Source: Bacteroidota bacterium (GTDB lineage: Bacteria; Bacteroidota; Bacteroidia; Bacteroidales; VadinHA17). From it: a stretch of 64,000 nt of DNA. The translations under genes and the position numbers were made by a program. Location: positions 24,340 through 88,339 of the forward strand of contig JADFDS010000040.1 of assembly GCA_018262715.1 (NCBI GenBank). Direction: 5' to 3'. This document shows positions 4,570 through 56,492 of this stretch, piece after piece. The notes beneath the pieces were generated by a model. The model saw nothing but the letters and a program-made list of their open reading frames with translations. It made no database searches and had not been told where the DNA came from. Position 1 is the stretch's first letter, and the number at the start of each line of letters is the position of its first letter.

Positions 4570-4614
4570 CTGCCGAATTTATTCTTTTGGTCAAAAAAAG
4601 AAAGGAATTAAAAG

Positions 4615-5253
4615 ATGCCAAAGATTAAATTAGGAGCCAAATCGCCACGAATCGACATGACGCCGATGGTGGACCTGTTCACACTGCTGCTCACATTCTT
4701 CATTCTGACAGCAACGTTCAGGCCCCAGGAATCGGCTCCTGTTGATACACCTTTTTCCGTATCGGAGAAACCCATGATGGATGCCAACGTAATGACGGTA
4801 CTCATCGCGAAGGACAACCGGGTATTTTTCAATGTTGACAACGGACCGGACACCATTCTGAAATTCCGGCCGAAAATCCTTGCCGAAATGGGCAAGCGTT
4901 ACAACATTGAATTCACCGAGGATGAACTTCGCCTCTTCGAGAAGACCGGCACTGCCGTGGGCGTTCCGATACAGGATATGAAGAAATACCTCGCCTCGAA
5001 GGATTCGGATGAGAAAATTGCACTCGAAAAAGGTGTGCCTATTGACTCAACCGATAACCAGCTTGCCTTGTGGATTCTCTTTGCACGCCAGATCAACCCT
5101 GCAGCTGATGCAATGATCAAGGGCGACGCAGACGTTGAATTCCCGGTTGTAAGGGAAGTACTTGATATTCTGCAGGACAAGAATGTGAACAGGTTCAACC
5201 TGATCACGAACCTGAGGTCAGCTGAAGTAACCGAAGAACAAATAGCAGAATAA
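4615..5253 (+). CDS. exbD: ExbD/TolR family biopolymer transport protein
   Basis: N-terminal RIDMTPMVDLFTLLLTFFIL signature with the conserved TM Asp. Directly follows exbB. Confidence 0.9.
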   Translation: MPKIKLGAKSPRIDMTPMVDLFTLLLTFFILTATFRPQESAPVDTPFSVSEKPMMDANVMTVLIAKDNRVFFNVDNGPDTILKFRPKILAEMGKRYNIEFTEDELRLFEKTGTAVGVPIQDMKKYLASKDSDEKIALEKGVPIDSTDNQLALWILFARQINPAADAMIKGDADVEFPVVREVLDILQDKNVNRFNLITNLRSAEVTEEQIAE

Positions 5254-12946: not shown

Positions 12947-13070
12947 TCCCTGAACAATTTCCCTGAATTTATGGTTAAATATACGAATTCAATTCATATA
13001 ACGGCTGAAACCACTTCCGGCATATAAATTGAGGTAATTTTTAGTTATATTGGCTTCGTATATTCAGGCT

Positions 13071-16000: not shown

Positions 16001-16805
16001 CTCCTCCGAACCCATATATGACGAGCTTACCTTCAGGGTAGACAGCGTCACTGACATGCAGATCTCGGGTGACACACCCTGGGCACAAAGAAAGAAAGTG
16101 CTGAAGCCGGGCGTACACCTGCTGGAGTGGATATATTCAAAGGATGTCTCACTCTCGGGCGGACTTGACGGAGCATGGCTCGACCAGGTTACATTCCCCG
16201 ACATTTCGTTCCTTGAGGCAGACCTGCATATTGATTCGGTCTTTGCTCCCCCAGCAGAGGCAATGCTTTCGGAGGTGACCGTGAAAGGGAGGGTGATCAA
16301 CCTTGGACGCAACGCACTGACAAGCTTCCCGCTGGCATACAGTATCAATGAAGGGGAATTGGTCAATGAAACCTTCTACAGGAAAATAGACCCGGGTGAC
16401 ACTGTTGATGTGGCTTTCACACAGAAATGCAGTCTGCTGAAGGATATACCATATCATATTCATATTTTCAGCCGGCTGCCTGAAGACGGTTATGCAGGAA
16501 ATGATACCGCATTCGTTTCGTTTGTCATATCCGGAACCGGACCGGAAATCAATGAGGATCAGGTAATCCTGCATCCCAATCCTTTCAATGAGGATTTCTC
16601 GCTTGAAGTTGACTTCGGGGGAAGTGAGACGGCAGGCTTTGAACTGTTTGATGCTTCGGGAAGGATCGTCATGCAGTCAGAGGCTGAGCTGTCGCCCGGC
16701 AGGAACCGGATTCCGTTCAATTGCCGGCACCTTGGATCTGGTATCTATACCCTTCGGATCACATACGGGGGCAGGAGCTTCTCGATGAAGGCAGTTAAAA
16801 AGTGA
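13071..16805 (+). CDS. Peptidase C25 (gingipain-family) protein with T9SS C-terminal sorting domain
   Basis: Propeptide-like N-terminus (GQPELPV). Catalytic-type motifs NYTGHGEATGF (His) and IANACRTAQ (Cys). C-terminal Por_Secre_tail-like segment (ILHPNPFNEDFSLEV...GIYTLRITYGGRSFSMKAVK). ATG 13071 preferred over TTG 13050. Confidence 0.85.
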   Translation: MRVKQRATAVLAAIMLLLNLPDADSQAYAGRTAGDKPGVKVSRQLSDFIYRSGESEFQTITDPSGKYLRLFLPGHHQSPETGQPELPVWSRLVEVPDGMEVVVSISEVSSRRIRFADRGAPQAELFPAQPARTKNQVRDDRITVKDRKAYGSRNTLMHDTVRVTHEGIFRGRRLANIAVYPAFYNPGGRYVDLITSMKVEIGFRPEATKGEEDTEDPVNKGGFASDSYITGYTDRPVHMIIVTDSIFRKHLEPLVRWKTLKGIRTTVIYRKSGPADTVYKDLKNRISTVYFSLQEKGIPVHYLMIAGDQSIIPTSRGTTNVSDLYYGEFDGQGDYIPELFIGRLPASDTTQMKGMVKKIIDYETNRFGPAIDNWSRALATAGNAPGFELYMNGQVSYIYNTYLKADKSLNAIGWLYPDAPQKDDSLKTVFNKGVSILNYTGHGEATGFSDPAFRTSMMNEFSNENKYPLIIANACRTAQINVASCFGTAMVATPNKGAIGYIGCTNDSYWSDDFFWSVGPGTPGPNVTFETTGAGAFDRLFHTHGEPPGEWYYTMGQVNFSGNMSVSASTSPRKKYYWETYMLLGDPSLSPVIGRPDTFRIDLPDRVPQQLQVLSFFTGPFAYAALSDFDTLWDARFVSPSGNISLAVPAGVKDSCLLVVTGQNMLPFYKTIHFGDVPEPFITVGDIVFDDADGNGNGLPDYSEPVNLQVTVKNIGKMRTSKMTARLSVASGMITVEADTATIGVLLPGQTRTITGKFIFRVSDSVEDGELAALLLSIKDGSEEYRYGIDMTLNAPELKIISAIHDDSSLGNSNFLPDPGEKLHLRVRVKNDGSAAATGLVKITPAGPMLTVYQPELATDSIKPGQVKDIYFETEISPLAGSGKVIPYDVSFICGKYEARGRWSVSTGKTRETWEFDRFDVFPWILNGEYPWIITSSVSYENVFSARSAPIPDKTESILAIYVNNPVADTMSFFVRVSSEPIYDELTFRVDSVTDMQISGDTPWAQRKKVLKPGVHLLEWIYSKDVSLSGGLDGAWLDQVTFPDISFLEADLHIDSVFAPPAEAMLSEVTVKGRVINLGRNALTSFPLAYSINEGELVNETFYRKIDPGDTVDVAFTQKCSLLKDIPYHIHIFSRLPEDGYAGNDTAFVSFVISGTGPEINEDQVILHPNPFNEDFSLEVDFGGSETAGFELFDASGRIVMQSEAELSPGRNRIPFNCRHLGSGIYTLRITYGGRSFSMKAVKK

Positions 16806-19949: not shown

Positions 19950-21152
19950 ATGAGACTCAGAAGAGGCCTGACAACCTTAATTATAGCCAACTTCGGGATT
20001 TTATCCTCCTATGGGCAGTATTTCACCAGGCTGGGAATCGGCCTCGATACCCGGACAAACGTAAGCATACCTGTGGCTGTGGCTGATCCGAATGATCCTC
20101 AATTTTCAGGAGAGTTACTGGCCGCCAAGTACCCGGGCCTGAATATCCCGCCCGGAAAAATTGACCTCGTGTACCCGGTGATCCCGGACGCTGCCGATAC
20201 GGTGGCCATTCTATGGTACCTGATGCCCGAGGAGATCTCTGCCGTGCCCGGAGAAATGAACGTGATCATAGTTGAAATCACCCCCGGAAATGAAAAAAGA
20301 TTCTGGATTGACAATAACAATGATCGCGTGTTCAGCAGCAGCGAGAGATCATTTATTTTCAGGAACACTGAAGAAAGCCGGCCTGTGAACATAATGGTCG
20401 CAGGCTCCTATTACTCCTATACTCTGTTTAACCCCGACTACTCCCCTCCTTCTGCCCCTTCGGAAACCATCAGGCAATCCAAAAGCTCCTGGTCAGACAG
20501 AAAGGGAAAACCATCTTTTGCGATTGACCTGTCAGCGTCATTCCTCAGGGCAGATGCAAGTCTCTCATATATAAAGCAATCAAGACCATCAAATACAATC
20601 ACCTATTCCGCCAGAATCCCCGGAAGCTTCAGGCCTGCCATCGGATTCGACTTTTCATGGTATGACTTTCATCTTCTTCTGGGTGGCGGTTTCGAGAAAG
20701 CCAAGTACACTGAAAACATACTGGTTTCAACAAATGACGGCAGCCAGACTACAAGCTACAACAGCGGAACCTGGCCAACTTCGAGGTTCATCCTCAGCAT
20801 TGCACTGGAGTATGACATCAGCGCCGGCAGGTATCTTTACCTCACACCCTTCGCCGTATGGTCCAATTTCAAAAATGACAGCAGGTTCAACTTTGACAGG
20901 TACCAGGGATCTAGTGCAGGTGCAGAATACACAGACTCAAAATCTTATGAAGCAGGCTTAAAGCTTAAAATGCCGGTTGACAGGCAGGTCATCATTCACC
21001 TCAGCCTCGCATACTCTTCGGTGTATTTCAATGCTGAAAAGCATTTTACTGATGTTTTACCCGGATCATACCGCATGAGTATGGAAGGATTCTATTACGG
21101 TGTCGGCGTTAATTTCAGCCTCAGAGGTTCGGCAGGGCAGGATGCTGAATGA
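19950..21152 (+). CDS. Hypothetical exported protein, C-terminal half beta-barrel-like
   Basis: Signal peptide (LIIANFGILSSYGQ). C-terminal half has alternating hydrophobic/aromatic strands (FDFSWYDFHLLLGGGF, LSIALEYDIS, GFYYGVGVNFSL). Confidence 0.55.
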   Translation: MRLRRGLTTLIIANFGILSSYGQYFTRLGIGLDTRTNVSIPVAVADPNDPQFSGELLAAKYPGLNIPPGKIDLVYPVIPDAADTVAILWYLMPEEISAVPGEMNVIIVEITPGNEKRFWIDNNNDRVFSSSERSFIFRNTEESRPVNIMVAGSYYSYTLFNPDYSPPSAPSETIRQSKSSWSDRKGKPSFAIDLSASFLRADASLSYIKQSRPSNTITYSARIPGSFRPAIGFDFSWYDFHLLLGGGFEKAKYTENILVSTNDGSQTTSYNSGTWPTSRFILSIALEYDISAGRYLYLTPFAVWSNFKNDSRFNFDRYQGSSAGAEYTDSKSYEAGLKLKMPVDRQVIIHLSLAYSSVYFNAEKHFTDVLPGSYRMSMEGFYYGVGVNFSLRGSAGQDAE

Positions 21153-32002: not shown

Positions 32003-32761
32003 CTATTGCTTTTTGCCCAGCAAATCCATTAAGCCGTTAATGAACGTCAACGGATGGGCAGGATTGCCGGGAATGTAAAGATCAATATGATGATTTTCAA
32101 TGAAATTCCTCTTAATGGCAGGACTGCCGGCAAAGAGCCCTCCGCTGATGGCGTCAGTGCCGACAAGAATGATTAACCTTGGCGCAGGAGTTGCTTCGTA
32201 GCAGATCTCCAGTGCCCTGGACATGTTTTCGGAAACAGGACCGGTGATGACAATTCCGTCGGCATGACGGGGTGAAGCCACAAATTCAATTCCGTACCTG
32301 CCCATATCAAAATTCACGTTCCCCGTTGCCCCCAGTTCCATCTCGCATGAGTTATCGCCTCCTGCCGACACCTGGCGGAGTTTCAGGGACTGCCTGAACA
32401 ACCTGCGGATCTCCTTCCTGACAGCAGTCTCATCTATCCGGACCGGATCAGCCTGGCCGGGCTTTATGACCAGGTCTTCCTTCCTGGTGGCAGCAATACG
32501 GTAGTCATTGGTGAACCTGTAAACCTCCGGCATTGCCAATGCACACTCATTGCAGAAGGAGCACCTGCCAAGATCAATGGCACCGCTGTTGCCGTCAATG
32601 GCGCCTGCCGGGCATAACGCAGCAGCTCTTCCGGCCAGGGCTGCAGTAATATCTGCTGAGATTACCGGCCTGCCCCTGAACAGGGCAGAGACGGGTTGAT
32701 TACGGAGATCAGGTACGTACTGTTTGCCGTGATCGGCGAGTATTTTAATCTCTTTTAGCAT
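32003..32761 (-). CDS. NuoB/HycG-like small subunit of the Hyf/Ech-like complex, fused to a half-degenerate ferredoxin segment; proximal-cluster cysteines mostly lost
   Basis: NuoB/HycG family blocks RHADGIVITGPVS, GTDAISGG and YIPGNPAHP. The expected Cys positions read D136, C139, D203 and N233. N-terminal AxxAxxAxxxCP (40-51) plus CxxCxxCxxxMP (67-78). Confidence 0.85.
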   Translation of the reverse strand: MLKEIKILADHGKQYVPDLRNQPVSALFRGRPVISADITAALAGRAAALCPAGAIDGNSGAIDLGRCSFCNECALAMPEVYRFTNDYRIAATRKEDLVIKPGQADPVRIDETAVRKEIRRLFRQSLKLRQVSAGGDNSCEMELGATGNVNFDMGRYGIEFVASPRHADGIVITGPVSENMSRALEICYEATPAPRLIILVGTDAISGGLFAGSPAIKRNFIENHHIDLYIPGNPAHPLTFINGLMDLLGKKQ

Positions 32762-32778: not shown

Positions 32779-34299
32779 CTACAGGTCGTTGCCACAGTAA
32801 GAAAGGTTAAAGCTCTTGTTGCATACCGGGAAATCAGATATCTCCTGGCTTCGTACGGCAAGGACAAGGGCCATCCAGTTATGCATGGAGGGATCCTTGA
32901 CCTTATACATGGCCAGCTTTCCGTCACTGTCAGTCACCGCCACATGGCATATCTCCCCTCTCCATCCTTCTGTCGCCGAGACAGCCAGGCAGTCAGGCCT
33001 GAATTTCAGGTCATACTGCGGTCTGCCGGTCTCCTTCGCACCACTTCTCCAACTGTCAATCAGCCTGCGGATAATCTCCACCGATTCTTTTACTTCAAGG
33101 GCACGGAGCATCCCACGGGCGAGAACGTCACCCGTTTCCTGCATCACCGGGTTGATCTCCATCTTCCTGTAATACTGGAAGGGATGGGTCGCACGCATAT
33201 CCCTGGGCACCCCGCAGGTGCGTGCAGCCATACCCACCGCGCCTATGGAAGTTGCCTGCTTCCGCGTAACATTACCTATATCCTCAAAGCGCCCGAGAAC
33301 GCTTGGAAGGGTATAAACACAACCGGTAACATTGCCGTATCTCCTGTCAACATCTTCCAGAACCCTGAGTATTTCGACCGCGGACTCCTCAGTGAGCGGG
33401 AAGTTCGATCCGCCGGGACGTATAAGGCCCTTCCCAAACCGGTTTCCACACCAAAACTGGGTTGTGTTTATTACCATTGTTCTCAGAGCCTCGCAAGCCA
33501 CCTGTCCCAACTGGTAAGCCACATCACCGCACAGAGCAGCCGTATCACCTATGTGCACGGCAATTCGTTCAAGCTCCAGGGCAATGCAGCGCTCGGCCTG
33601 GAGTGAAACCGGAGGCTCAAAACCTGCCAGCGATTCAGCCAGCTGTGCATGTGCCAGACCGTGTGCCACGGCACTGTCGCCTGCAATGTCTTCCGCAAGG
33701 AGTGCCCGACGCAGACTGTCACCGGCAGACGTGAGGAGCTTCTCAATACCCCGGTGCTGGTATCCAAGCTGAATCTCAAGATGCAGTACCCTCTCACCGT
33801 TGCATATGAACCGGAAGTGACCGGGCTCGATCACACCTGCATGAATGGGCCCCACTCCCACCTCATGAAGCTCCTCGCTCTCCATGCTGTAGAATGGATA
33901 GTTATCCATCACACTGAGCCTGTCAGCCCTGTCATGCGGATACCTCACCGGTTTGAGCCAGGGATGACCCTCGAAAACCACACCATGATTTTCATGTATC
34001 TCACGTTCAAATATATGCATCGCGTAACACGACGCCGTCAACGACTTCAGCGACGTGCCGTCATCTTTCTTAATGTGGCTTAGTATCCTTATCTCCCCGG
34101 AACCGTCATCGGCAATGATGCAGATGAACCTGAATCCTTCGCCGGTCCTGAAACAGGAGTAGCTCAGGCAATGATAACGTTCATCTGTCAGCATGGAGGT
34201 GACTTCTTCATGGAACAGGTCATAACCGATCACCGGGATCTCAGAAAATCCTGCGGGTGACGAACCGTTCCTGACTACTGTATACCTGTTGCTGCTCAT
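32779..34299 (-). CDS. HycE/HyfG-like (NuoC-NuoD fusion) large subunit lacking [NiFe] cysteine ligands
   Basis: NuoC-like FEREIHENHGVVFEGHP. NuoD/large-subunit blocks GPIHAGVIEPGHFRF and GYQHRGIEKL. The L1 position reads AGDSAVAH (nt 33661-33684) instead of CGxCxxxH. The C-terminus reads FNLSYCGNDL with no CxxC. Confidence 0.9.
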   Translation of the reverse strand: MSSNRYTVVRNGSSPAGFSEIPVIGYDLFHEEVTSMLTDERYHCLSYSCFRTGEGFRFICIIADDGSGEIRILSHIKKDDGTSLKSLTASCYAMHIFEREIHENHGVVFEGHPWLKPVRYPHDRADRLSVMDNYPFYSMESEELHEVGVGPIHAGVIEPGHFRFICNGERVLHLEIQLGYQHRGIEKLLTSAGDSLRRALLAEDIAGDSAVAHGLAHAQLAESLAGFEPPVSLQAERCIALELERIAVHIGDTAALCGDVAYQLGQVACEALRTMVINTTQFWCGNRFGKGLIRPGGSNFPLTEESAVEILRVLEDVDRRYGNVTGCVYTLPSVLGRFEDIGNVTRKQATSIGAVGMAARTCGVPRDMRATHPFQYYRKMEINPVMQETGDVLARGMLRALEVKESVEIIRRLIDSWRSGAKETGRPQYDLKFRPDCLAVSATEGWRGEICHVAVTDSDGKLAMYKVKDPSMHNWMALVLAVRSQEISDFPVCNKSFNLSYCGNDL

Positions 34300-34304
34300 G
34301 ATTT

Positions 34305-35732
34305 CTATCTGGGTAGCGATGAGATGCTGGTGCTGATCAGGTCAGTAAGAAAGGGTGGCTGCCAGAAGCAGATCATAATCACGAGGGCCAGCAGGATGAA
34401 CTGGCTGACCGTCTCTACCGGGCTGACCATGCCCGGTTGCAGCAATTCACTGTCATTCCTCGGTGATGAAAAGCTGACATGCATTATCCTCGTGCTCATC
34501 GCATAAATTATATAGCAGAGAAGAATGACTGTCAAAGCCATGACCAGCCACTGGCCGTTGACTACCATCGCCCTGAGGATCATAAGTTCAGAGATGAACA
34601 TTCCTGACGGGGGTATGGCAAGAATGCAGATCATGCCTGTCATAAGCACCATAGCCCCTGCGGGATAGAGTTTCATATACCTGCCGCTTTCATCGAGCCT
34701 GAATGTGTGAAGGATCCTTGAAAGCTGTCCCATCTGGTAAAAAAGGCTTGACTTGGCTAAAGAATGGAGTACTATAAGCAGCAGGGCGGCATAATAGCCG
34801 TATCCGCCAACACCCAGGGCGATTGCAACAAGTCCCATATTCTCGAGGCTCGAGTATGCAAGCATGCGTTTCAGATGTTTTGCCTTCAGCATGTAACCGG
34901 CAGCTATAAGCAACGAAAGTACACCGGCCAGGATAAGTACATTACTCATGAATGAGAGCGCCGGAGTGCCGGAAAAAAGCGTGTAAACGCGATAGATGGC
35001 AAGGAATCCCACATTCATCAGGGTGGTGGAGATGAGCGCGCTCACAGGAGGTGGCGCCACAGAGTGGGCATCGATGGTGACTGTATGCATGGGAAAGAGA
35101 CCCATCTTGGTGCTGAATCCCACCAGCACAAATATGAACGCTATCTTGAGATACAGGGGATTGGCGTTGCTGATAACGTGACTAAAAGAGGAGAAGGAGA
35201 GGTTCGGGGCATCGCCGCGTCCGTAGATAAATCCCAGGAATAGGATTCCGAGGTAAGCCAAAGCAATACCCGTGGAACAAATAAATACGTATTTCCACGT
35301 AGCCTCCAGCGCCATCTCAGTGCGGTCGTGGTAGATGAGCACCGCCACGGCAAGGGTGGTTGCCTCCACGAAAATCCACAGAACCGTCATCGTGTTGGCC
35401 AGGTACGCTCCGGCCATGAATGTCATAAGTGCTATCAGCCCGGAGTGATATATATTAAGTCTCTTGACGGTGTCATCACGGGTATAGATAAAGCCATGGT
35501 AAACCGTAGGAAGAGTCAGCAGGGTCAGTACTGACAACAGCAGCACCGCCGTACTGTCATAGGTGAACCAGGTGAGTTCGGTGTTGCCCCTGTTAATCCA
35601 GGCGTGAACCGTAATGGCAATGAGAAGGGCAGAGAACGCAAGTGCAAATGCCCTCGTCAGTCCCCTGTTCCGGGAGAGGAGTGTAACGCCGCTCAGCGCC
35701 AGTGACAGTATGAAGAAGAGCAACAGCATCAT
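34305..35732 (-). CDS. HyfF/NuoN-like antiporter-type membrane subunit
   Basis: Polytopic. Mrp/Nuo antiporter-like blocks WIFVEATTLAV, GFSTKMGLFPMHT, MLAYSSLENMG and HSLAKSSLF. Confidence 0.85.
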   Translation of the reverse strand: MMLLLFFILSLALSGVTLLSRNRGLTRAFALAFSALLIAITVHAWINRGNTELTWFTYDSTAVLLLSVLTLLTLPTVYHGFIYTRDDTVKRLNIYHSGLIALMTFMAGAYLANTMTVLWIFVEATTLAVAVLIYHDRTEMALEATWKYVFICSTGIALAYLGILFLGFIYGRGDAPNLSFSSFSHVISNANPLYLKIAFIFVLVGFSTKMGLFPMHTVTIDAHSVAPPPVSALISTTLMNVGFLAIYRVYTLFSGTPALSFMSNVLILAGVLSLLIAAGYMLKAKHLKRMLAYSSLENMGLVAIALGVGGYGYYAALLLIVLHSLAKSSLFYQMGQLSRILHTFRLDESGRYMKLYPAGAMVLMTGMICILAIPPSGMFISELMILRAMVVNGQWLVMALTVILLCYIIYAMSTRIMHVSFSSPRNDSELLQPGMVSPVETVSQFILLALVIMICFWQPPFLTDLISTSISSLPR

Positions 35733-35734
35733 CC

Positions 35735-36349
35735 TTAATCCTTTAACATGGTCAGTTCATTTGTATGCGGCTTGAGCCGAAGCCCGAAAAAGCCCAGGAT
35801 CAGGACACCTACGAAGATGTCAAGAAGTATCCCGATGTTGATAAGCATCGGCATCTCATTGCCTATGGCCAGAGAAAAGAGGAAGACCGCATTCTCAACC
35901 ACAAGGAACCCGATCAGGTGCGAAATAATGAGCTTGTGGGTCACAATCAGAAGCAACCCGGTCAGAAGGGTGAACAGTGCTATTGCAAGGTATATCGAAT
36001 TGATGAAGGGATTCACAAGGATCACGGCAAGAATAACACTGATCAGCAGTCCCGCTATTGAAAAAAGCAGCAGGTAAAACCCGGGAACAGCCTGCCTGTG
36101 CACCTTTGTCACACCCGACTTCCGGATAATCCGGCTCAGCAGGTATGGCAGAAGCAGAGTCTTGAAAAGCAGCGTCTCTGCCACTATGAAGAGCAGGTTT
36201 GCCAGGTTGACCTCCTTAAGTTCAAACACTGCAATACCGCACAGCAGAAGGCCCTGCAGCGCCACCAGCCTTACATACGTACTCAGCCTTTCTGCCGAGG
36301 CAAAGTAGATGAGAGTCACCGCAAAGAGAACTATAAGGTAGTTTACCAT
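35735..36349 (-). CDS. HyfE-like small membrane subunit (NuoK-related)
   Basis: 204 aa with about 6 TM helices and an intramembrane Glu (FLVVENAVFLF). Its position between the HyfC-like and HyfF-like genes matches hyf gene order. Confidence 0.7.
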   Translation of the reverse strand: MVNYLIVLFAVTLIYFASAERLSTYVRLVALQGLLLCGIAVFELKEVNLANLLFIVAETLLFKTLLLPYLLSRIIRKSGVTKVHRQAVPGFYLLLFSIAGLLISVILAVILVNPFINSIYLAIALFTLLTGLLLIVTHKLIISHLIGFLVVENAVFLFSLAIGNEMPMLINIGILLDIFVGVLILGFFGLRLKPHTNELTMLKD

Positions 36350-36355
36350 TTCCTT

Positions 36356-37270
36356 TCAGGCCAGTTTTTCAGTCAGTATCAGAATAACCATAAACGCGAT
36401 GAGGGCTATCGAGGACAGAGTCAGGATGAACTTCGGATTCTTGTTCATCTTGTTCCTTGCCCTGAATGATTCCGTAAATCCGATTACCACGGCAAAAAGA
36501 GCCTGCACAGCGAAAAAGAGCCCGGTCTGCAGAATCACATTCCATCCGGCAGGTACAACGAGATTATATATCAGCGAGCCATAGATGGCAAATTTCAGGT
36601 ATGTGCCAATATGGATCAGCGCCTTATCGAAGCCGCTGTAGTCAAGTATCATCACCTCGTGGATCATGGTCAGCTCAAGGTGTGTCTTCGGATCGTCGAC
36701 AGGCAGCCTGCTGTTTTCTATCATGGCAATCTGAACCAGGAGATAAGCCCCTATAATACTGTAAATCAACACATAATCATTCCCGGTAATAAAGAAGTGG
36801 TTAAATATTACGGAAAATGAGGTGTATCCGGTGAACATTGCAAAGGTGGCAATCAGAATGAAGAAGGCCGGTTCAACAAGCATTGAGAAGAGGGCTTCAC
36901 GGCTGGCTCCCATCCCTTCAAAGCTGCTTCCGGTATCAAGAGCTGCAATTATCGTAAAAAACTTTCCGAGAGCTAGCAGGTAAGCGAACATGATGAAATC
37001 GCCCTCAAAGGAAAGCACTGCCTTTTGCTCCGCAAAGGGCAGAAACAGCATGGCTCCGGTGACTGTTGCCAGGGTGACCGACGGAGCTATTCTGAAAATC
37101 AGGCCGGTGGTGTCACTGAATACACTCCCTTTCCTGAACAGGACAGCAATATCCTTCCATGGCTGGAATATACCCGGGCCTTTGCGTCCGGAGGCGATGC
37201 TCTTCGTCCGGAGGATTACTCCGGGGAAAAAGAAGGCTGCGACAGCTATGAGTACAAATCCTGCCATCAT
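36356..37270 (-). CDS. HycD/HyfC/NuoH-like membrane subunit
   Basis: Signature block ENSRLPVDDPKTHLELTMIHEVMILDYSG (compare the HycD/NuoH family) and N-terminal RTKSIASGRKGPGIFQPWKD. Confidence 0.85.
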   Translation of the reverse strand: MMAGFVLIAVAAFFFPGVILRTKSIASGRKGPGIFQPWKDIAVLFRKGSVFSDTTGLIFRIAPSVTLATVTGAMLFLPFAEQKAVLSFEGDFIMFAYLLALGKFFTIIAALDTGSSFEGMGASREALFSMLVEPAFFILIATFAMFTGYTSFSVIFNHFFITGNDYVLIYSIIGAYLLVQIAMIENSRLPVDDPKTHLELTMIHEVMILDYSGFDKALIHIGTYLKFAIYGSLIYNLVVPAGWNVILQTGLFFAVQALFAVVIGFTESFRARNKMNKNPKFILTLSSIALIAFMVILILTEKLA

Positions 37271-39264
37271 CAGATTATTTTGAGCATTGCCAGCAACAAT
37301 ACAAGCAACATGAAGACAAATGCATAGAGAATATAATGTCTTATCTGACCGGTCTGCATCACGGCTATCCTTTTAAGCAATCCCGAGACCAGGTCAACCG
37401 GCCTGTCTACAAGGTGTCGCTTGAAGAGGTCATCGCTGTGCGAAAGGAATTTCCTCCCATGAGGGAATATCTCATCCTCTCCGATCTCTTCAATTTCCTT
37501 CCTGGTCTGCAGCAATGGCTTGGCGATGTGGTTATAGTTGTAGGCGAACGATGTTGCTGTATACTGTTGCTTCGCTGACCCGGCCGTATAGCCGCAGCCC
37601 CAGGTGGGGCCGGTTTCCACCACGCGCCGGCTCAGGTGATACCTCCGGTAGAGCAGAAGCACGGCAACAGTGACGACAAATATCCCTCCTGCCAGGCTGA
37701 GCTGAGCCAGATTGGCGGTGAAGGCTCCGGAGACCAGTGGCTGTGCGCCCAGGTTCCATATCTGCCCGACAATGCCAAAAACCGGTTTCACCACCAGCGG
37801 TGATCCAAGCCCGATAAAGATGATCATGGCTGCAGTGGCCAGCTGCGGATAAATCATGGATTTTCCCGCCTCACGGGCATGTCCGGCCTGATCTGACCTC
37901 GGCTCGCCAAGAAACACGATTCCGAAAGCCTTGGTGAAGCAGAAGATAGCAAGTCCGCCAATAAGTGACAATGCTGCAATTGACCCCACAATGAGTATGG
38001 AGTGGAAGAGATTGGCACCGGAAAGGCTGCCGAACATCCCCATATATATCAGGTATTCAGAGATAAAACCGTTGAACGGCGGCAGTCCGCAGATAGCCAG
38101 CGATCCGGTCAGAAACAGGATGGCAGTCCATGGCATCCGTTTCATCAGGCCTCCCGTTTGCTCCATATTGCGAGTATGGGCAGCCAGGTAAACAGAGCCG
38201 GCATTAAAGAAGAGCAGTGACTTGAAAAGAGAATGATTCAGGACGTGGAGAAGGCCTCCTGAATAGCCAAGCAGGGAAAGGGTATGATTGCCTGTTGCCT
38301 GGCCTATGACTCCCAGGCCGAGACCAATTCCGATAATGCCTATGTTCTCGATGCTGTGATAGGCGAGCAGCCTTTTAAGGTCATGCTGGACTATAGCCAT
38401 CATCACACCCAGGACTCCTGATACGAGAGATATAATCAGGATAATGACACCCGTGACCAGCAGGTCTGACTGCATTGCAGCCAGTACCCTTACGATACCG
38501 TAAATGCCCATCTTGATCATCACCCCTGACATCACCCCTGAGACATGTGACGGGGCAGCCGGATGCGCCTCAGGAAGCCATGTGTGCAGCGGAATGAATC
38601 CGGCCTTGATGGCAAAACCGGCAAAGAAGAGCAGGAATACCGGGAGGTTTCGGTGTCTGCCAAAATATTCACCGAGTGCGTCGAAGCTCATCCTTCCTGT
38701 ATCCTGCTGTACAATCAGGAATGCGACAAGAATGAAGAACATGCCCACATGCATCTGGATGAGATAGCTGATTCCTGTCTTCATGATGCTCCTCTCTTCC
38801 GCATCGAAGATCACGAGGAAGAACGATGAGAGAGCCATTATCTCCCATACTATCAGGAAAGAAAGCCCGTCACGCACCATCACAACCATAAGCATTGAAA
38901 TCCACAGCCACAGGTATGAGAAGTAATGGATTGAAAAACGGAGAGCGTTCATCCGGGCACGGTAAGGCTCAAGATACCCCCTGGCGTAGAGGAACCCGAC
39001 AAGTACGGTAAAATTGATGACAAGAATGAAAAAAGCAGAAAGACTGTCAATTACCAGCACCATCCTGGTGCCTGTTGCCGCAGTGAACAGGGATAATTCG
39101 CAGGTCTGCCCGGCGTCTGGAAGCACACCTGTACACCATGATGTGGAAAGTGCAATCCCTGCTGTCAGGAGGCCCAGGGTAAAGTAATACTTCAGCCATT
39201 CAGGCACTGCAAAGACGAACAGTGAGAGAAGCAAGATGACCAGAAAGGCTGTTGATCCAAACAT
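37270..39264 (-). CDS. HyfB/HycC/NuoL-like antiporter-type membrane subunit
   Basis: 664 aa, polytopic. Blocks WEIMALSSF, GFAIKAGFIPLHTWLPEAHPAAPS, LLAYHSIENIG and NHSLFKSLLF. Its stop overlaps the next gene's ATG by 1 nt (TGATG). Confidence 0.9.
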   Translation of the reverse strand: MFGSTAFLVILLLSLFVFAVPEWLKYYFTLGLLTAGIALSTSWCTGVLPDAGQTCELSLFTAATGTRMVLVIDSLSAFFILVINFTVLVGFLYARGYLEPYRARMNALRFSIHYFSYLWLWISMLMVVMVRDGLSFLIVWEIMALSSFFLVIFDAEERSIMKTGISYLIQMHVGMFFILVAFLIVQQDTGRMSFDALGEYFGRHRNLPVFLLFFAGFAIKAGFIPLHTWLPEAHPAAPSHVSGVMSGVMIKMGIYGIVRVLAAMQSDLLVTGVIILIISLVSGVLGVMMAIVQHDLKRLLAYHSIENIGIIGIGLGLGVIGQATGNHTLSLLGYSGGLLHVLNHSLFKSLLFFNAGSVYLAAHTRNMEQTGGLMKRMPWTAILFLTGSLAICGLPPFNGFISEYLIYMGMFGSLSGANLFHSILIVGSIAALSLIGGLAIFCFTKAFGIVFLGEPRSDQAGHAREAGKSMIYPQLATAAMIIFIGLGSPLVVKPVFGIVGQIWNLGAQPLVSGAFTANLAQLSLAGGIFVVTVAVLLLYRRYHLSRRVVETGPTWGCGYTAGSAKQQYTATSFAYNYNHIAKPLLQTRKEIEEIGEDEIFPHGRKFLSHSDDLFKRHLVDRPVDLVSGLLKRIAVMQTGQIRHYILYAFVFMLLVLLLAMLKII

Positions 39265-39283
39265 TAATCCGGCAATTTGCCCG

Positions 39284-39291
39284 CAAATGTA
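39284..39291 (-). promoter_or_regulatory. Candidate -7 promoter box TACATTTG for the Hyf/Ech-like operon
   Basis: Reverse complement of 39284-39291 is TACATTTG (TAnnTTTG), with 19 nt between the box and the ATG at 39264. Confidence 0.45.
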
Positions 39292-39326
39292 AAAAATATA
39301 TTATCCGGTTATACTTTAAACCGGAT
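39292..39326 (-). terminator. Candidate rho-independent terminator of the upstream GH109-like gene
   Basis: Read on the minus strand: ATCCGGTT-TAAAGTAT-AACCGGAT (39326-39303), followed by AATATATTTTTT. Confidence 0.45.
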
Positions 39327-39344
39327 TAAGTCAGAACTGACCGG

Positions 39345-47515: not shown

Positions 47516-48871
47516 CTATTTCAGAAGCTCATAGGAAAGACCTGCCTGAAACGATACATTCTTATCCAGATAGGGATTTCCCAGCAACCAGCCTTTTGTT
47601 TTTCCTGATACCGAAACAAATCCCGAGAAACTGTCATTGAACAAATACCTTGTCCTGATTCCTGCATACCCTCCGGTAACCATGGAATCTGAGAAGAATG
47701 ATTCAGGCTGGCTCCATACATTCAACCTGAGCTCCGACCGTACCTTGCCTGAGACACCCAGGTTGTACAGCGACAGACCAGCTCCAAGACCCGTGTCACT
47801 TTTGTTGCTGTACCTGTGAGCATTTACCATGACACCGAATCTTCTGAACCTGACCGGAACAAAGAGTGCAATGTCATTGCCAAAATGAGTGGGTGAATAC
47901 TGGGTGAAGAAATTGAATGAGAAACCCTCACTGAACTTAATTCTGTCGATAAAGAATATGCCGGGATTAAGAAAATTAAGAAGGGAAAGGTCCTTCTGCC
48001 TGGTAAGATAATCCTGCCCTTCGGACGAGAGATCAGAAAAGCCGATTCGCCTGTTTACCCCTTCACCTCCGGGGAACGGATCTCTTTCAGTATAAGGCAG
48101 GCCGGGATTGAACATGTCGTGTATCCAGGCATTAAGGTCAGCCCCTGCATAATCCCTCTCAGCAGGATTGGTGTTCTCATGTGGCGGAGCCAGCACTTTT
48201 ACAGAGTCGCTGGCCGGACTTGCAGAGAATCTGAAGTAATTATACACATACCAGGCATTGTACAATAACAAAGAGGCTTTGGGCAAAGACCTTTCGAAAT
48301 AGAATTCACTGATGGCAATCCGTTCATTCAGATTGATTTCATATTGCACTCCGGCGACATAAGAGTAGAGCAGGTTATTAATTCCGGTGGTCTTCAGGTC
48401 CTGCAGAGTCATATCCGAAATCCCGTAAACAGTCCCGTCCCAGCGGCTGAGGAACCAGTTACCGTTCTTCGAAGAGACTCCGCTGGTGCCGAGGACAGCC
48501 CGGTGATATTCCTCATGAGCCCATACTCCGAGCGGAATCGGAAGTTCACTGCCATATTTTGAAAATCCAAGTCCCAGAGCATACTTGAATGCACTATTGG
48601 TAAACCTGCCGAATCTTGTTTCCGGCTTTGACCTGGAAGTGAAAATTGCATCTCCGAGTTCATCAATTCCCCAGTATGCGAGGTCATACATGCCGGAGGA
48701 GAATTCAAGTGCCTGGTTCATGGATGGATACCTGTATGGCAGGTCAATGTTCTGTGGCAGGTCAATCAAAGGAATGTCAAGCCGCAGCCTGTATTCAGGA
48801 TTGTCCTGACCTGATGAGAGTGCTGATGATAATAGAAAGACTACCATCAAAAAGTTTTGACTTGATTTCAT
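47516..48871 (-). CDS. Hypothetical exported / outer-membrane protein
   Basis: 451 aa with signal peptide (VVFLLSSALSSGQ). C-terminal third has beta-strand alternation. No motif recognised. Confidence 0.55.
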   Translation of the reverse strand: MKSSQNFLMVVFLLSSALSSGQDNPEYRLRLDIPLIDLPQNIDLPYRYPSMNQALEFSSGMYDLAYWGIDELGDAIFTSRSKPETRFGRFTNSAFKYALGLGFSKYGSELPIPLGVWAHEEYHRAVLGTSGVSSKNGNWFLSRWDGTVYGISDMTLQDLKTTGINNLLYSYVAGVQYEINLNERIAISEFYFERSLPKASLLLYNAWYVYNYFRFSASPASDSVKVLAPPHENTNPAERDYAGADLNAWIHDMFNPGLPYTERDPFPGGEGVNRRIGFSDLSSEGQDYLTRQKDLSLLNFLNPGIFFIDRIKFSEGFSFNFFTQYSPTHFGNDIALFVPVRFRRFGVMVNAHRYSNKSDTGLGAGLSLYNLGVSGKVRSELRLNVWSQPESFFSDSMVTGGYAGIRTRYLFNDSFSGFVSVSGKTKGWLLGNPYLDKNVSFQAGLSYELLK

Positions 48872-50285: not shown

Positions 50286-50864
50286 TCACCTGGCAGCTGC
50301 CGCATCCCTCCCGGCACGCAGTGCCTTCAGATTGACCTCAACAACCTCTTCTCCCTTGCGGCCGAACATCTTCCTGACCGCATCTTCGAGCGCCGTGAAG
50401 GGCATCGAGATGAATGACGAAGCAGCACCCAGGATGACCATGTTGCCTGATCTGGCTGATCCCAGGTCACGTGCAATGCCGTCTGCATCAAGCACAATGG
50501 TGTTACCCGCCCTGTTAAGTTCAGCCAGCACCTCTCCTACCTCCGGGTAATCGGAGATATTCACGAAGGGAACCGAATTGGTAACCAGCCATCCGCTCTC
50601 TGAGAGCCATGGCAGATAACGAAGTGCCTCCATGGGTTCAACACTTATGATGAGATCTGCACCTCCGTGCGGTATAAGATCTGAAAAAATCTCGCTGTCG
50701 GAGAGACGCAGGTGCGACTGCACGTCGCCCCCGCGCTGGCTCATACCATGTACCTCCGCCTGCTTGAGGAAGAGGTTCTGTTCAACGGCTGCAAGCCCTA
50801 TCGTGGCTGCAATGGAGAGAATACCCTGTCCTCCCACTCCTGCAAGTATAATATCACATTTCAT
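50286..50864 (-). CDS. iorB: Indolepyruvate:ferredoxin oxidoreductase subunit beta
   Basis: N-terminal MKCDIILAGVGGQGILS (OFOR gamma-type domain). Starts 1 nt after iorA. Confidence 0.9.
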   Translation of the reverse strand: MKCDIILAGVGGQGILSIAATIGLAAVEQNLFLKQAEVHGMSQRGGDVQSHLRLSDSEIFSDLIPHGGADLIISVEPMEALRYLPWLSESGWLVTNSVPFVNISDYPEVGEVLAELNRAGNTIVLDADGIARDLGSARSGNMVILGAASSFISMPFTALEDAVRKMFGRKGEEVVEVNLKALRAGRDAAAAR

Positions 50865-50865
50865 A

Positions 50866-52485
50866 TCATTCCCTTGATTTGTTTTTCTCAGCCGCTTCGG
50901 CCTTTTTGTTGCGTGATGCCGTCTGGATGCACTCCCGTCTTGCCAGTATCACCGAGATACCGTGATAATTGAGTTCAGCGCGGATAACGGCTTTGTTCTC
51001 CTCATGATTCTTTCTCAGAGGCACTATCACCTTCAGGTGATCAGGATCAACACCCAGCCCCAGGCAGATGCTCTCAAGCCTGTCAGTGGCCTGCGATTTC
51101 TGCCCCCCGGTCATCCCGGTGGTGGAGTTGTCAGAGATAATCAGTGTTACCGGTGAATTCTTGATCACCGCATCAAGCAGTCCTGTCATGCCTGAATGGG
51201 TAAATGTGGAGTCACCTATCACGGCCACTGCCGGAAACAGACCGGCATCTGCAGCTCCGATTGCCATTGTCACCGAGGCTCCCATATCAACACACGAATT
51301 GACCATGTTGTATGGTGGCAGGGCGCCGAGGGTATAACAGCCGATATCTGAAAAGACGCGTCCGGGCCCGGCTTCTGCCATTACCTCTGACAACGCCTGG
51401 TACAGGTCGGCATGTCCGCAGCCCTTGCAGAACGACGGGGGACGCTGACGCACCAGCGAGGGAACCTCCCTGCCCTGACCGGCCCTGAGACCCAGGGCAC
51501 TGGCAACAATTGACGGATTAAGCTCCCCGTCGCGGGGTACCGTACCGTCCATCCTGCCCAGAACTTTGACGTCACGGTCAAGAAGACCCCTTAGCTGCTC
51601 CTCGATTATCGGATAACCCTCTTCCAGCACAAGAACCCTGTCACAGTTTTCCACCAATGCTGCAACCTTTTCCCTTTTGAGGGGATAAGCACCCACTGAT
51701 AGAACGTGATAATCTCCTGCTCGGTCAGCAATGTTTTCCATCAGGTAATTGTAAGCAATCCCGCAGGTAATGACCCCTGTGCCCCTGCCGTTTCCGGATT
51801 TCAGCCTGTTGAGCCCGTCAACAGCATCGTCAGTGCGCAGTTTCTCATAAACCGCTGTAAGAGCCCTGTACTGCTTCCTGGCTATCGCTGGAAGAAGCAC
51901 AAACTGCCGCGGATTCGAAGGCAGGGCAACACTGTTCTGAGCAATCTTTTCCCTCCGTGCAACAGATGACCTTGAATGTGCCAGCCTGGTTGTAATCCTG
52001 AACAACACAGGAAGCCTGTACTTCTCCGAGAGGGCAAAGGCTTCAAAGATCATGTCATAGGCCTCCTGCTGGTTACGCGGCTCCATTACCGGAACCAGGG
52101 CAAACTTGCCATAAAAGCGCGAGTCCTGCTCATTCTGGGATGAATGCATTGACGGATCATCTGCTGATACAACCACCAGCCCGCCGTTGACTCCCGTCAC
52201 CGCCGAGTTGATGAACGCATCAGCCGCCACATTCAACCCTACATGCTTCATTGCAACCATCGCCCTCTTGCCTGCATATGACATCCCCAGGGCAGCCTCC
52301 ATGGCTGTCTTCTCATTTGACGACCATTCACGGTGAACACCGTCCGCAGCAGCCTGCGGCGAAGCCTGGATGTACTCCATAATCTCAGTTGACGGAGTAC
52401 CCGGATAAGCATACATTCCGCTCAGGCCTGCATCCAGGGCAGCCTGCGCAATAGCCTCATCTCCAAGCAATAAGAGTTTATGCAT
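50866..52485 (-). CDS. iorA: Indolepyruvate:ferredoxin oxidoreductase subunit alpha (TPP enzyme)
   Basis: N-terminal LLLGDEAIAQAALDAGLSGMYAYPGTPSTEI. TPP-binding region GDSTFTHSGMTGL. Paired with iorB. Confidence 0.9.
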   Translation of the reverse strand: MHKLLLLGDEAIAQAALDAGLSGMYAYPGTPSTEIMEYIQASPQAAADGVHREWSSNEKTAMEAALGMSYAGKRAMVAMKHVGLNVAADAFINSAVTGVNGGLVVVSADDPSMHSSQNEQDSRFYGKFALVPVMEPRNQQEAYDMIFEAFALSEKYRLPVLFRITTRLAHSRSSVARREKIAQNSVALPSNPRQFVLLPAIARKQYRALTAVYEKLRTDDAVDGLNRLKSGNGRGTGVITCGIAYNYLMENIADRAGDYHVLSVGAYPLKREKVAALVENCDRVLVLEEGYPIIEEQLRGLLDRDVKVLGRMDGTVPRDGELNPSIVASALGLRAGQGREVPSLVRQRPPSFCKGCGHADLYQALSEVMAEAGPGRVFSDIGCYTLGALPPYNMVNSCVDMGASVTMAIGAADAGLFPAVAVIGDSTFTHSGMTGLLDAVIKNSPVTLIISDNSTTGMTGGQKSQATDRLESICLGLGVDPDHLKVIVPLRKNHEENKAVIRAELNYHGISVILARRECIQTASRNKKAEAAEKNKSRE

Positions 52486-55751: not shown

Positions 55752-56492
55752 ATGAACCGGTTTGAGATCACATTTACGGCAGTGATGGCCACGATCATAA
55801 TACACCTGACTGTGGCTGTGATCTTTATGTCTGTAAAAATCTCAGCACTCAGGCGTGAGATCGCCGCCGAGATCATACTGTCAATAGATGAGGAGATGCC
55901 GGATCCTGCAATGGAGAAGGCCATTGAGCTTGCAAAGAGCGACCAGTTCCAGGGCATCAGCCCTGAGGAGATGGTAAACATAATCAAGAATATTGCTGAC
56001 AAGCCTCTGGACATTGATCCCAAGGAGTATGAGGACATGGTCAAGGAGGAGATGATCAAGAGCGGTCTTCTTAATGAAAATAACTTCATTGACCAGCAAA
56101 AGATGGCGGAGGAGGCAGGGATGGAAGAGATTGCTGCCACACCTGAGGAGGTAAAGCCCCAGGTCACCGAGAAGAAGGAGAAACCCCAGGAACAGGGGAC
56201 TTTCCGGGGTCCCACAAGGATTTTTTATGATCTTGCCGGCCGCCACCATGTCTACCTCCCTATACCTATTTACAAGTGTGAGGGTGCAGGTCAGATAACG
56301 CTCGCCATTGTGGTTGACCGCGGCGGAAATGTGCTAAAGGCCGAGCCGGCCTCAAAACTTTCCACCACCAGGGATCAGTGCCTCACCGAGACAGCAGTGG
56401 AACATGCACTTAAAACAAGGTTCAATGCTGACCAGAGCGCTCCCGAAAAGCAGGGAGGCTTCCTCACCTTCGTGTTTGTATCGCAGAATTAA
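55752..56492 (+). CDS. Hypothetical membrane protein with TonB-like architecture
   Basis: N-terminal TM helix, an acidic/Lys-Pro-Glu-rich linker (PEEVKPQVTEKKEKPQEQG) and a compact C-terminal domain of about 90 aa. This is an architectural analogy only. Confidence 0.45.
   Translation: MNRFEITFTAVMATIIIHLTVAVIFMSVKISALRREIAAEIILSIDEEMPDPAMEKAIELAKSDQFQGISPEEMVNIIKNIADKPLDIDPKEYEDMVKEEMIKSGLLNENNFIDQQKMAEEAGMEEIAATPEEVKPQVTEKKEKPQEQGTFRGPTRIFYDLAGRHHVYLPIPIYKCEGAGQITLAIVVDRGGNVLKAEPASKLSTTRDQCLTETAVEHALKTRFNADQSAPEKQGGFLTFVFVSQN

Follow-up and report, generated by a model that had tools for sequence, protein, structure and literature searches.

Complexes of the Ehr class (energy-converting / Ech-hydrogenase-related) are relatives of the group 4 [NiFe]-hydrogenases, and the class reportedly goes back to Coppi 2005 and Marreiros et al. 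2013. Ehr complexes lack CxxC motifs, are close to group 4f and have no known function (PMC10284858), and they were still without a known function in reports of 2023 (PMC10432482) and 2026 (PMC13194489). Their composition, as given in Supplementary Note 4 of PMC6349859, is a NuoD-NuoC fusion, a NuoB-NuoI fusion, HyfB, HyfF, NuoH and HyfE, an arrangement that the same paper, citing Marreiros et al. 2013, also attributes to the Ehr of Firmicutes and hyperthermophiles; Lentisphaeria and Spirochaetia lie within its Ehr clade, and examples of Ehr are encoded by GSU0739-0745 of Geobacter sulfurreducens and by Margulisbacteria RA1A (PMC6349859). In this paper, we describe an operon of six genes in a stretch of 64,000 nt from a Bacteroidota bacterium (VadinHA17; assembly GCA_018262715.1, contig JADFDS010000040.1, positions 24,340-88,339 of the forward strand); the whole 64-kb stretch is called the window, and the coordinates below refer to it. 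The complex encoded by this operon is near-certainly of the Ehr type and not a hydrogenase, an assignment based on the ligand positions, the gene content and the published descriptions. It is descended from a group 4 (4f-like) [NiFe]-hydrogenase and is no longer able to bind a Ni-Fe centre. Like other Ehr, it has a large subunit that is homologous to those of group 4 hydrogenases, lacks both CxxC motifs and belongs to the same six-subunit set. It differs from the Ehr of other phyla in its small subunit: in the Bacteroidota clade three ligands of the proximal cluster are missing, and of ferredoxin motif 1 only the last Cys remains, so that one cluster is left. This cluster loss is a more unusual feature than the Ni-Fe loss from the large subunit.

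The large subunit is encoded by the fifth gene of a tightly packed operon whose six genes all run in one direction. This gene had been singled out in a preliminary description of this DNA, which was made from the letters alone and whose quoted strings, nucleotide coordinates and 506-aa translation of 32779-34299 are all exact. The features of the large subunit are as follows.

32779-34299, minus strand: large subunit (EhrL-like), a fusion of NuoC-like and NuoD/HycE-like parts, 506 aa (Pfam Complex1_30kDa and Complex1_49kDa; best PDB match HycE)
33808-33852, minus strand: beta1-beta2 loop GPIHAGVIEPGHFRF, of the hydrogenase type and without an equivalent of NuoD His38 (near-invariant in Ehr and in the sister hydrogenases described below)
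33661-33684, minus strand: former L1 Ni-Fe motif, now A206-G-D208-S209-A-V-A-H213 (phmmer and MAFFT; D208 and S/T209 clade-wide)
32782-32811, minus strand: former L2 Ni-Fe motif, FNLS500-Y-C502-G503-N-D505-L, residues 497-506 (phmmer and MAFFT; S500 and G503 clade-wide)

The sequence was compared with all PDB chains by phmmer and aligned by MAFFT together with true hydrogenases, and an AlphaFold2 model (pLDDT 78.7, pTM 0.83) was searched with Foldseek. Both halves of the fusion scaffold are readily recognised, with FEREIHENHGVVFEGHP at residues 97-113, GPIHAGVIEPGHFRF at residues 150-164, GYQHRGIEKL at residues 179-188 and a Complex1_49kDa match at 7e-34 (Pfam). In the phmmer alignments to PDB chains, DIAGDSAVAH stands at L1 opposite RVCGICGFAH of HycE and RMCGICSFSH of MbhL, and SFNLSY stands at L2 opposite SLDPCY of HycE, whose motif there is DPCYSCTDR; the MAFFT alignment with true hydrogenases gives the same register. 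The four positions of the Ni-Fe ligands therefore read A206, S209, S500 and G503. The sole C-terminal Cys, C502, lies one position before the fourth ligand position and is out of register. Although the protein contains 15 Cys, it contains no CxxC. The earlier observation that both ligand motifs are replaced is thus confirmed, the segments taken for L1 and L2 being homologous to them and no intact CxxC being present elsewhere in the 506 aa. It had further been noted that there is no C-terminal extension for processing, which is correct. The extension is, however, equally absent from the nearest Cys-containing relatives, which end in ...CYSCTD[R/L], so that its absence is ancestral to the lineage and not a consequence of the loss of the metal site.

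On the other hand, the suggestion that the protein resembles NuoD more than a hydrogenase is not borne out. The phmmer ranking is headed by HycE (7z0s_E, 4.7e-33), ahead of MbhL (6e-28) and Nqo4 of T. thermophilus (1.5e-24), and in the Foldseek search HycE again comes first (E = 4e-21, TM 0.75), followed by fused NuoCD chains (TM ~0.75). No solved structure found by Foldseek in the PDB has more than 25% identity to the large subunit in the aligned region, and therefore the PDB copy searched contains no Ehr structure. The beta1-beta2 loop follows the pattern GPxHxGxxEPGHFRF, which is common to the Cys-containing sisters and HycE. His38 and Tyr87 of Nqo4, which form the quinone site in the established structures of complex I, align by MAFFT to Ile157 and Gly207 of the large subunit; the His/Tyr pair that the preliminary description had proposed to look for is thus absent. 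The formate hydrogenlyase (FHL) / hydrogenase-3 and hydrogenase-4 of E. coli (HycE/HyfG; 7Z0S) have the same NuoC+NuoD-like fusion and Hyf-like membrane subunits, but HycE, unlike the large subunit in the window, has the Ni-Fe ligands and a C-terminal extension that is cleaved.

The replacement of the ligands is a property of a whole clade and goes far beyond what chance would give. A search of 5.8 billion proteins gave 120 clusters of close homologues with 64-100% identity, all of which have NLSYCGxDL as their C-terminal end and nearly all of which have GD[S/T] in L1. For wider relatives, HMMER was run over the full set of 1.84 billion cluster representatives; 584 matches lay below 1e-30, and residues were counted in the best 150 of these plus the query (151 representatives at 50% clustering). 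The Ni-Fe Cys ligands are missing in 145 of the 150 (146 of 151 with the query). Among these 146 Cys-less representatives, position 206 is A, S or C, and the adjacent residues are well conserved (G207 in 132/141, D208 in 133/141, S/T209 in 124/141), as are S500 (121/130) and G503 (119/129). Position 502 varies within the clade (C in 61, S in 32 and A in 23), and C502 is thus not a conserved ligand. The scaffold residues common to the clade and its sister hydrogenases, E158, R245, R287, D367, R369, D391 and R395, are conserved, and the sister hydrogenases carry Val or Ala at the position of D208. Clusters of Cys-less sequences have named members in Lentisphaeria, Sulfurospirillum, Spirochaetia, Binatia, Acidimicrobiales, Longimicrobiales, Ca. 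Aquicultor and Thermoplasmatota as well as in Bacteroidota. The query groups with the Cys-less sequences from Lentisphaeria and Spirochaetia; no Geobacter member was met in cluster look-ups of 20 large-subunit representatives. The replaced ligands, the clade-wide signature, the published operon composition and the published absence of CxxC motifs together identify the complex as Ehr.

The remaining five of the 151 representatives are true hydrogenases with ER[IV]CG[VA]C...H and LCYSCxD[R/L], their named cluster coming from metagenome-assembled genomes (MAGs) of Planctomycetota. These Planctomycetota [NiFe]-hydrogenases (e.g. of Ca. Wujingus californicus; P0232, P0338) are the nearest Cys-containing relatives, with ~35-37% identity, and they are probably the HydDB group 4f, which is the neighbour of Ehr according to PMC10284858. 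The sister locus L085 has the same six-gene order, HyfB-C-E-F-G-(I/B fusion), as the operon in the window, and the sister hydrogenases share its extension-free C-terminus (KSFxLCYSCTD[R/L] versus KSFNLSYCGNDL here) and its beta1-beta2 loop. Unlike the complex in the window, they keep C-G-x-C...H, C-Y-S-C, both ferredoxin motifs and the four proximal Cys. In the sister locus a PDDEXK_3-family gene (L085:11644-12036) lies between the large- and small-subunit genes.

In neighbour-joining (NJ) trees with 200 bootstraps, the Cys-less sequences and the sister hydrogenases split together from HycE, MbhL and Nqo4 in 186 of 200 replicates. All the Cys-less sequences are monophyletic in the point tree, but in only 45 of the 200 bootstraps; a single ancient loss of the Ni-Fe Cys, as suggested by this topology, is thus plausible but unproven. 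When one genome per species was scanned, at least 591 loci proved to encode a relative of the large subunit. The best 80 of them were fetched, nearly all from Bacteroidota MAGs, the closest being L001 from a Bacteroidales bin with 91% identity. The Bacteroidota loci are monophyletic in 200/200 bootstraps, and the clade extends to Prolixibacteraceae, Lentimicrobiaceae, Cytophagales and Chitinophagaceae.

The small subunit, which the preliminary description had left aside, has lost ligands of a different kind. Its features are the following.

32003-32761, minus strand: small subunit (EhrS-like), a fusion of a NuoI/HycF-like ferredoxin and a NuoB/HycG-like part, 252 aa (Pfam Oxidored_q6 2e-19 and weak Fer4)
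32543-32614, minus strand: retained [4Fe-4S] ligands C50(-P51)...C67-x2-C70-x2-C73, the fourth Cys of motif 2 being Met77 (alignment to HycF and MbhN)
32345-32356, minus strand: former CxxC of the proximal (N2-like) cluster, now D136-N-S-C139 (GGDNSC opposite GSCNGC of MbhJ and GGCNGC of HycG)
32153-32155, minus strand: third ligand position of the proximal cluster, now D203 (GTD opposite GAC in MbhJ and HycG)
32063-32065, minus strand: fourth ligand position of the proximal cluster, now N233 (PGNP, not PGCP; alignment to MbhJ and HycG)

Its best PDB matches are MbhJ and HycG, the N-terminal domain aligning to MbhN and HycF. In its AlphaFold2 model the ferredoxin domain has a pLDDT above 90 and residues 126-178 of the NuoB-like domain fall below 50, and Foldseek returned only weak matches, over ~92 columns, to NuoB-like chains. 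The ligands were counted in 76 related loci and in a separate set of 121 protein clusters. Ferredoxin motif 1 is reduced to its terminal C50-P51, the first three Cys being gone. C50 occurs in 75/76 loci and each of C67, C70 and C73 in 76/76, with the same pattern in 120/121 protein clusters. By the standard rule of cross-ligation in 2x[4Fe-4S] ferredoxins, the four Cys ligate a single cluster, the equivalent of N6b of complex I. Of the proximal cluster, three of four Cys ligands are lost and C139 is left; the replacements are themselves conserved, with D136 in 74, D203 in 73 and N233 in 74 of the 76 loci and C139 in 60, and the pattern D-C-D/E-N-H is found in 120/121 small-subunit clusters. 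We know of no [4Fe-4S] site made up of one Cys, two Asp and one Asn. In E. coli, HycF and HycG are separate proteins with three clusters, unlike the fusion in the window. Complex I (NuoCD/NuoB) and Mbs/Mbx of P. furiosus (6U8Y) share the fold and the modular architecture and have also lost or remodelled the Ni-Fe site; however, the complex in the window has neither the His/Tyr quinone site nor the cluster N2 of complex I, and it is also without the proximal cluster that Mbs uses for sulfane reduction.

Outside the Bacteroidota these ligands are kept. In eight non-Bacteroidota Ehr loci (L081-L084 and L086-L089), the proximal ligands number four of four in seven and three of four in the eighth, and several of these loci keep both ferredoxin motifs. 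Within the Bacteroidota, locus L063 (MAG CAWHOW010000017 of a Bacteroidetes organism, 11513-12259) is the only one of the 76 loci with every cluster ligand; it retains all the ferredoxin and proximal Cys beside a Cys-less large subunit, and the small subunit itself is native to the clade. Since the proximal ligands are kept, all or nearly all, in the Ehr of other phyla and in L063, the Fe-S losses probably came after the Ni-Fe loss and within the Bacteroidota. L063 is basal among the Bacteroidota loci in 0/200 NJ bootstraps and is nested among them, which, as it is fully liganded, means that the cluster ligands were lost more than once or that the NJ placement is wrong. No earlier description of Ehr small subunits without N2 was found in the papers on Ehr that were examined, Marreiros et al. 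2013 not among them, and the Bacteroidota variant with its cut electron wire may be new. Among the non-Bacteroidota loci, three (L083:3288-3803, L084:3405-3893, L089:9549-10088) have a plain NuoB-like small subunit of 162-179 aa without a NuoI-like domain, and in the type represented by L083 (Binatia) and L084 (Acidimicrobiales) the small-subunit gene is first in the operon and not last; Ehr operons are therefore of at least two architectures.

The operon in the window has the order HyfB-like, NuoH-like, HyfE-like, HyfF-like, NuoC+NuoD-like and NuoI-NuoB fusion, and its four membrane subunits are encoded as follows.

37270-39264, minus strand: HyfB/NuoL-like antiporter-type subunit, 664 aa, first gene (Pfam Proton_antipo_M 9e-53; PDB HycC 7z0s_C 6e-59)
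36356-37270, minus strand: NuoH/HycD/HyfC-like membrane subunit, 304 aa (Pfam NADHdh 1.5e-27)
35735-36349, minus strand: HyfE-like small membrane subunit, 204 aa (NCBIfam 'hydrogenase 4 membrane subunit' 3e-12, below cut-off)
34305-35732, minus strand: HyfF/NuoN-like antiporter-type subunit, 475 aa (Pfam Proton_antipo_M 1.8e-40)

The Hyf layout reported in the preliminary description thus stands by Pfam and NCBIfam, and so does the lack of a quinone-reductase context, no NuoA/J/K or NADH-module genes being found in the operon. Every NCBIfam match in the operon lies below its curated cut-off, e.g. 'hydrogenase 4 subunit B' with 555 bits against a cut-off of 667 for the HyfB-like subunit and 'hydrogenase 4 subunit F' with 238 bits for the HyfF-like one. 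Measured against the group 4 [NiFe]-hydrogenases, the locus has the Hyf-type gene set and gene order, but neither the four Ni-Fe Cys nor the four-Cys proximal cluster. The six genes occur in the same order in nearly all of the 80 fetched loci. The membrane subunits keep the canonical transport residues, i.e. a Glu in transmembrane helix (TM) 5, a Lys in TM7, a Lys in TM8 (the HyfF-like subunit excepted), a His in TM11 and a Lys or Glu in TM12. Invariant residues are E141, K220, K251, H340, H344, K348 and E403 in the HyfB-like subunit (66-69 loci), E125, E133, E185, R188, D192, D193, E199, E205, D210 and E267 in the NuoH-like subunit, E58, K63, E152 and D177 in the HyfE-like subunit, and E123, K209, H323, K327 and E382 in the HyfF-like subunit. 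In the latter, the TM8 position at which the aligned MbhH and MbsH have a Lys is taken by Asn240 (76/78 loci), so that the usual Lys chain is interrupted in a conserved way. Seven Bacteroidota loci (L064, L069, L070, L075, L077, L079 and L080) have a second HyfB-like gene in tandem, in the ~2 kb between the HyfB-like and NuoH-like genes (e.g. 2878-4902 and 4803-6926 in L070), an arrangement reminiscent of EhrA-1 and EhrA-2 of Geobacter.

For the 61 loci with a complete set of six genes, members of a clade in which identity falls to ~50%, conservation was compared as the fraction of columns that are at least 95% identical. This fraction is highest in the small subunit (0.30), the large subunit (0.28) and the NuoH-like subunit (0.27), and lower in the HyfB-like (0.17), HyfE-like (0.13) and HyfF-like (0.13) subunits. 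These patterns show purifying selection on the genes rather than decay. Constraint is strongest in the peripheral arm, poor in cofactors as it is, and in its membrane anchor, which indicates that their junction still does something specific.

We propose that the complex is a redox-independent ion translocator, working like an Mrp-type H+/cation antiporter or as a cation transporter linked to the proton-motive force, with the junction as an ion-binding or gating site; we give this explanation an even chance of being right. As far as can be read from the ligands, redox chemistry has probably ceased in the Bacteroidota Ehr complex: electrons have no way to the junction pocket when the Ni-Fe centre, the proximal cluster and the quinone-site residues are all missing. 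The Ni-Fe centre, the proximal cluster and one ferredoxin cluster have been lost, leaving a single isolated [4Fe-4S] cluster, which may be structural or serve as a redox sensor. The membrane ion path, made up of the two antiporter-like subunits and the NuoH-like and HyfE-like subunits with their Glu/Lys/His chains, has been kept under strong selection, and so has the junction of the large, small and NuoH-like subunits. The two former metal sites are now lined by conserved oxygen-bearing residues (carboxylates and hydroxyls), the Ni-Fe pocket by D208, S/T209, S500, E158 and D505 of the large subunit and the proximal-cluster site by D136, D203 and N233 of the small subunit. This re-lined junction would sit beside the invariant acidic loop of the NuoH-like subunit and act there as the ion-binding or gating site. 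What we infer in this model is the lack of redox chemistry and the direction and species of the ion transport; the homology, the ligand losses with their conservation, the operon composition and the kept transport residues are observed. A redox-free precedent is the Mrp Na+/H+ antiporter (6Z16, 7QRU), in which two antiporter-like subunits, members of the MrpA/MrpD family, carry the same Glu/Lys/His chain; unlike the complex in the window, it has no peripheral arm and no NuoH-like subunit. The complex is not a member of the Mrp family, but by analogy it may work like Mrp. It is also possible, though less likely than not, that the Bacteroidota Ehr is the first member of the complex I/membrane-bound hydrogenase (MBH) superfamily in which the whole hydrophilic arm has been kept under strong selection but stripped of its electron chain (Ni-Fe, N2-like and N6a-like) and re-purposed as a non-redox module for ion binding, gating, sensing or catalysis. 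The antiporter-type ion path would then be controlled by the junction with D208, S/T209, S500, D136, D203 and N233, the lone cluster being a redox or oxygen sensor. If this were true, the series from hydrogenase (L085) through three-cluster Ehr (L082, L063) and two-cluster Ehr (L081) to the one-cluster Ehr in the window would be a natural dissection of coupling without redox.

Several points weigh against a redox-independent translocator. The peripheral arm is the most conserved part, which suggests a specific role there beyond that of a simple 'cap', and the invariance of the four Cys of the retained cluster would also be expected of an electron entry point that is still in use. Just where it matters, the AlphaFold2 models have low confidence, at residues 116-179 and 482-506 in the large subunit and at 126-178 in the small one. 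Homologues of MrpB, C, E, F and G were not detected in the operon by Pfam or NCBIfam, and the sequence holds no evidence as to which ion moves. Finally, subunits of the Ehr of G. sulfurreducens, which is of a different type, rise on formate (PMC7894505), hinting at a redox link for Ehr generally.

The strongest alternative, clearly less probable than the translocator but to be taken seriously, is a classical Ehr redox pump, in which ferredoxin or a formate- or NAD(P)H-linked partner would feed electrons through the retained cluster to an acceptor in the remodelled pocket and so drive ion translocation. The invariance of the complete four-Cys cluster, the conservation of the arm and the greater abundance of Geobacter Ehr on formate speak for it, as do the invariance of the coupling loop GPxHxGxxEPGHFRF and of the carboxylates of the NuoH-like loop and the proposal in the literature of complexes between formate dehydrogenase (FDH) and Ehr. 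Reduced ferredoxin would probably be available as well, since the window contains a gene pair (50286-52485, minus strand) for an IorB-like protein (192 aa) and an IorA-like protein (539 aa; POR_N, TPP_enzyme_C), likely an indolepyruvate/2-oxoacid:ferredoxin oxidoreductase, with which the organism probably makes it. However, three of the four ligands of the relay cluster are gone and their replacements, Asp, Asp and Asn, are conserved, and even the remaining C139 is absent from 16 of 76 loci. As the equivalent of N6b, the retained cluster would be too far from the pocket (> ~14 A) for tunnelling in a single step when N2 is absent. Furthermore, the flanks of the operon show no conserved partner gene, no flanking family being present in more than 21 of the 80 loci.

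A coupling of ion flow to non-redox chemistry or to a ligand, which we rate as lower still and rather improbable, would have the Asp/Ser/Thr pocket bind a hard metal or a small molecule and catalyse or sense a hydration, a decarboxylation or a binding change that drives proton flow through the membrane arm or is driven by it. An analogy is the CupA-dependent hydration of CO2 on the cyanobacterial NDH-1MS complex. Such a pocket would fit the clade-wide gain of D208 (133/141, against Val or Ala in the sister hydrogenases), S/T209 and S500, the conservation of D136, D203 and N233 at the former cluster site, and the constraint on the three subunits that form the junction. Yet the idea is drawn purely from residue chemistry, no homology to a hydrolase or lyase site was found, no substrate-related genes occur in the operon or in its flanks in the 80 loci, and the model confidence at the pocket is low.

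Far less probable are the readings that would make the complex dead or ordinary. A hydrogenase operon drifting towards loss as a non-functional relic would account for the absence of all catalytic metal ligands, and the Geobacter Ehr has been treated as non-functional (PMC13194489); but this is strongly disfavoured by six ORFs that nearly all of the 80 loci have intact and in syntenic order, by a large-subunit gene present in at least 591 species-level genomes, by the conservation of the replacement residues and by the constraint on the peripheral and NuoH-like subunits, in which 27-30% of columns reach at least 95% identity. Slightly less credible again is a NuoD-like quinone-reducing module, for although the nearest Pfam and NCBIfam models are Complex1_49kDa and NuoD and fused NuoCD chains are close fold matches (TM ~0.75), Ile157 and Gly207 stand in place of the Nqo4 His38 and Tyr87, there is no N2 cluster, HycE is the best match by sequence and fold, the operon holds no NuoA, J, K, E, F or G genes, and all Nuo scores are far below their cut-offs (NCBIfam NuoD 148 bits against 360). 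That the protein is still a hydrogenase whose metal centre sits on unconventional ligands, as the conserved scaffold residues E158, R245, R287, D367, R369, D391 and R395 shared with the sister hydrogenases might suggest, verges on the impossible, given that none of the four thiolate ligands is left, that C502 is variable (C61, S32, A23), that the proximal cluster is absent and that no hyp or endopeptidase gene is found among the Pfam-matching ORFs of at least 200 aa in the 64-kb window.

The surroundings of the operon are those of a typical Bacteroidales genome, with a C25 peptidase bearing a tail of the type IX secretion system (T9SS), TonB/ExbBD and the IorA/IorB-like genes. The peptidase (13050-16805, plus strand) is gingipain-like and 1251 aa long, with a propeptide, CARDB and a Por/T9SS C-terminal sorting domain. 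The Pfam-matching ORFs of at least 200 aa in the window include no hyp, hycI, fdh or ferredoxin genes; the FHL of E. coli receives its electrons from HycB and FdhF, neither of which is present at the operon. As partners of the complex, a GH109-like periplasmic oxidoreductase and an M49 peptidase were considered and rejected, as they reflect synteny among close relatives and occur in at most 21 of the 80 loci, and the remaining frequent flank families look like spurious reverse-strand ORFs. Three ORFs are without a Pfam match at E <= 1e-5, i.e. 19950-21152 (plus strand, 400 aa), 47516-48871 (minus strand, 451 aa), whose product has an N-terminus like a signal peptide, and 55752-56492 (plus strand, 246 aa). 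A scan of the window against Rfam gave no match. In the 80-nt gap upstream of the operon (39265-39344, minus strand) there is a perfect 6-bp inverted repeat, CCGGTT...AACCGG. The -7 promoter consensus of Bacteroidetes is TAnnTTTG; the box TACATTTG (39284-39291), 20 nt before the first ATG, was rejected as such an element, for TAnnTTTG occurs 29 times in the window, which is about the chance expectation.

Some of the non-Bacteroidota loci have neighbours of another kind. ArsR/SmtB-type HTH_5/HTH_20 genes adjoin the Ehr operon in four of the eight (Binatia, L083:2475-2834; Acidimicrobiales, L084:10652-11784; Aquicultor, L087:2478-2801; and L089:387-686), and a cation-efflux (CDF) gene lies near the operon in L087; these adjoining genes may point to a metal- or ion-responsive control of Ehr. 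In a Thermoplasmatota MAG (L088:339-9991), the Ehr set is followed by a Usp-family gene and then by a second set of membrane subunits (Proton_antipo_M, NADHdh and an unannotated gene).

Taken as a whole, the preliminary description was right about the loss of the ligands, the missing extension, the operon layout and the genomic context, but its likening of the protein to NuoD is not supported; it also missed that the complex belongs to a known class and that the small subunit has lost ligands of its own. What has been found is thus a known class rediscovered, the possible novelty being the Bacteroidota variant, in which the electron wire may have been cut. Ehr is widespread, this clade occurring in at least 591 species-level genomes, mostly of Bacteroidota to judge from the best 80, and related clades occurring in many phyla. 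Its genes routinely receive the wrong annotation, 'Ni,Fe-hydrogenase III large subunit' or 'NADH-quinone oxidoreductase subunit C/D', so that H2 metabolism and complex I are over-predicted from metagenomes, and they should be counted neither as hydrogenases nor as complex I. The question of what Ehr does is about twenty years old (since 2005). If the electron wire is truly cut while the junction and the ion path remain under selection, then at least the Bacteroidota Ehr would be redox-free, which would narrow the hypotheses for the whole class, and the complex would be a natural minimal system for studying how junction loops of the complex I type drive or gate ion translocation. The main value of the present analysis lies in the correction of annotations and in the smaller number of hypotheses that it leaves for the function of Ehr.

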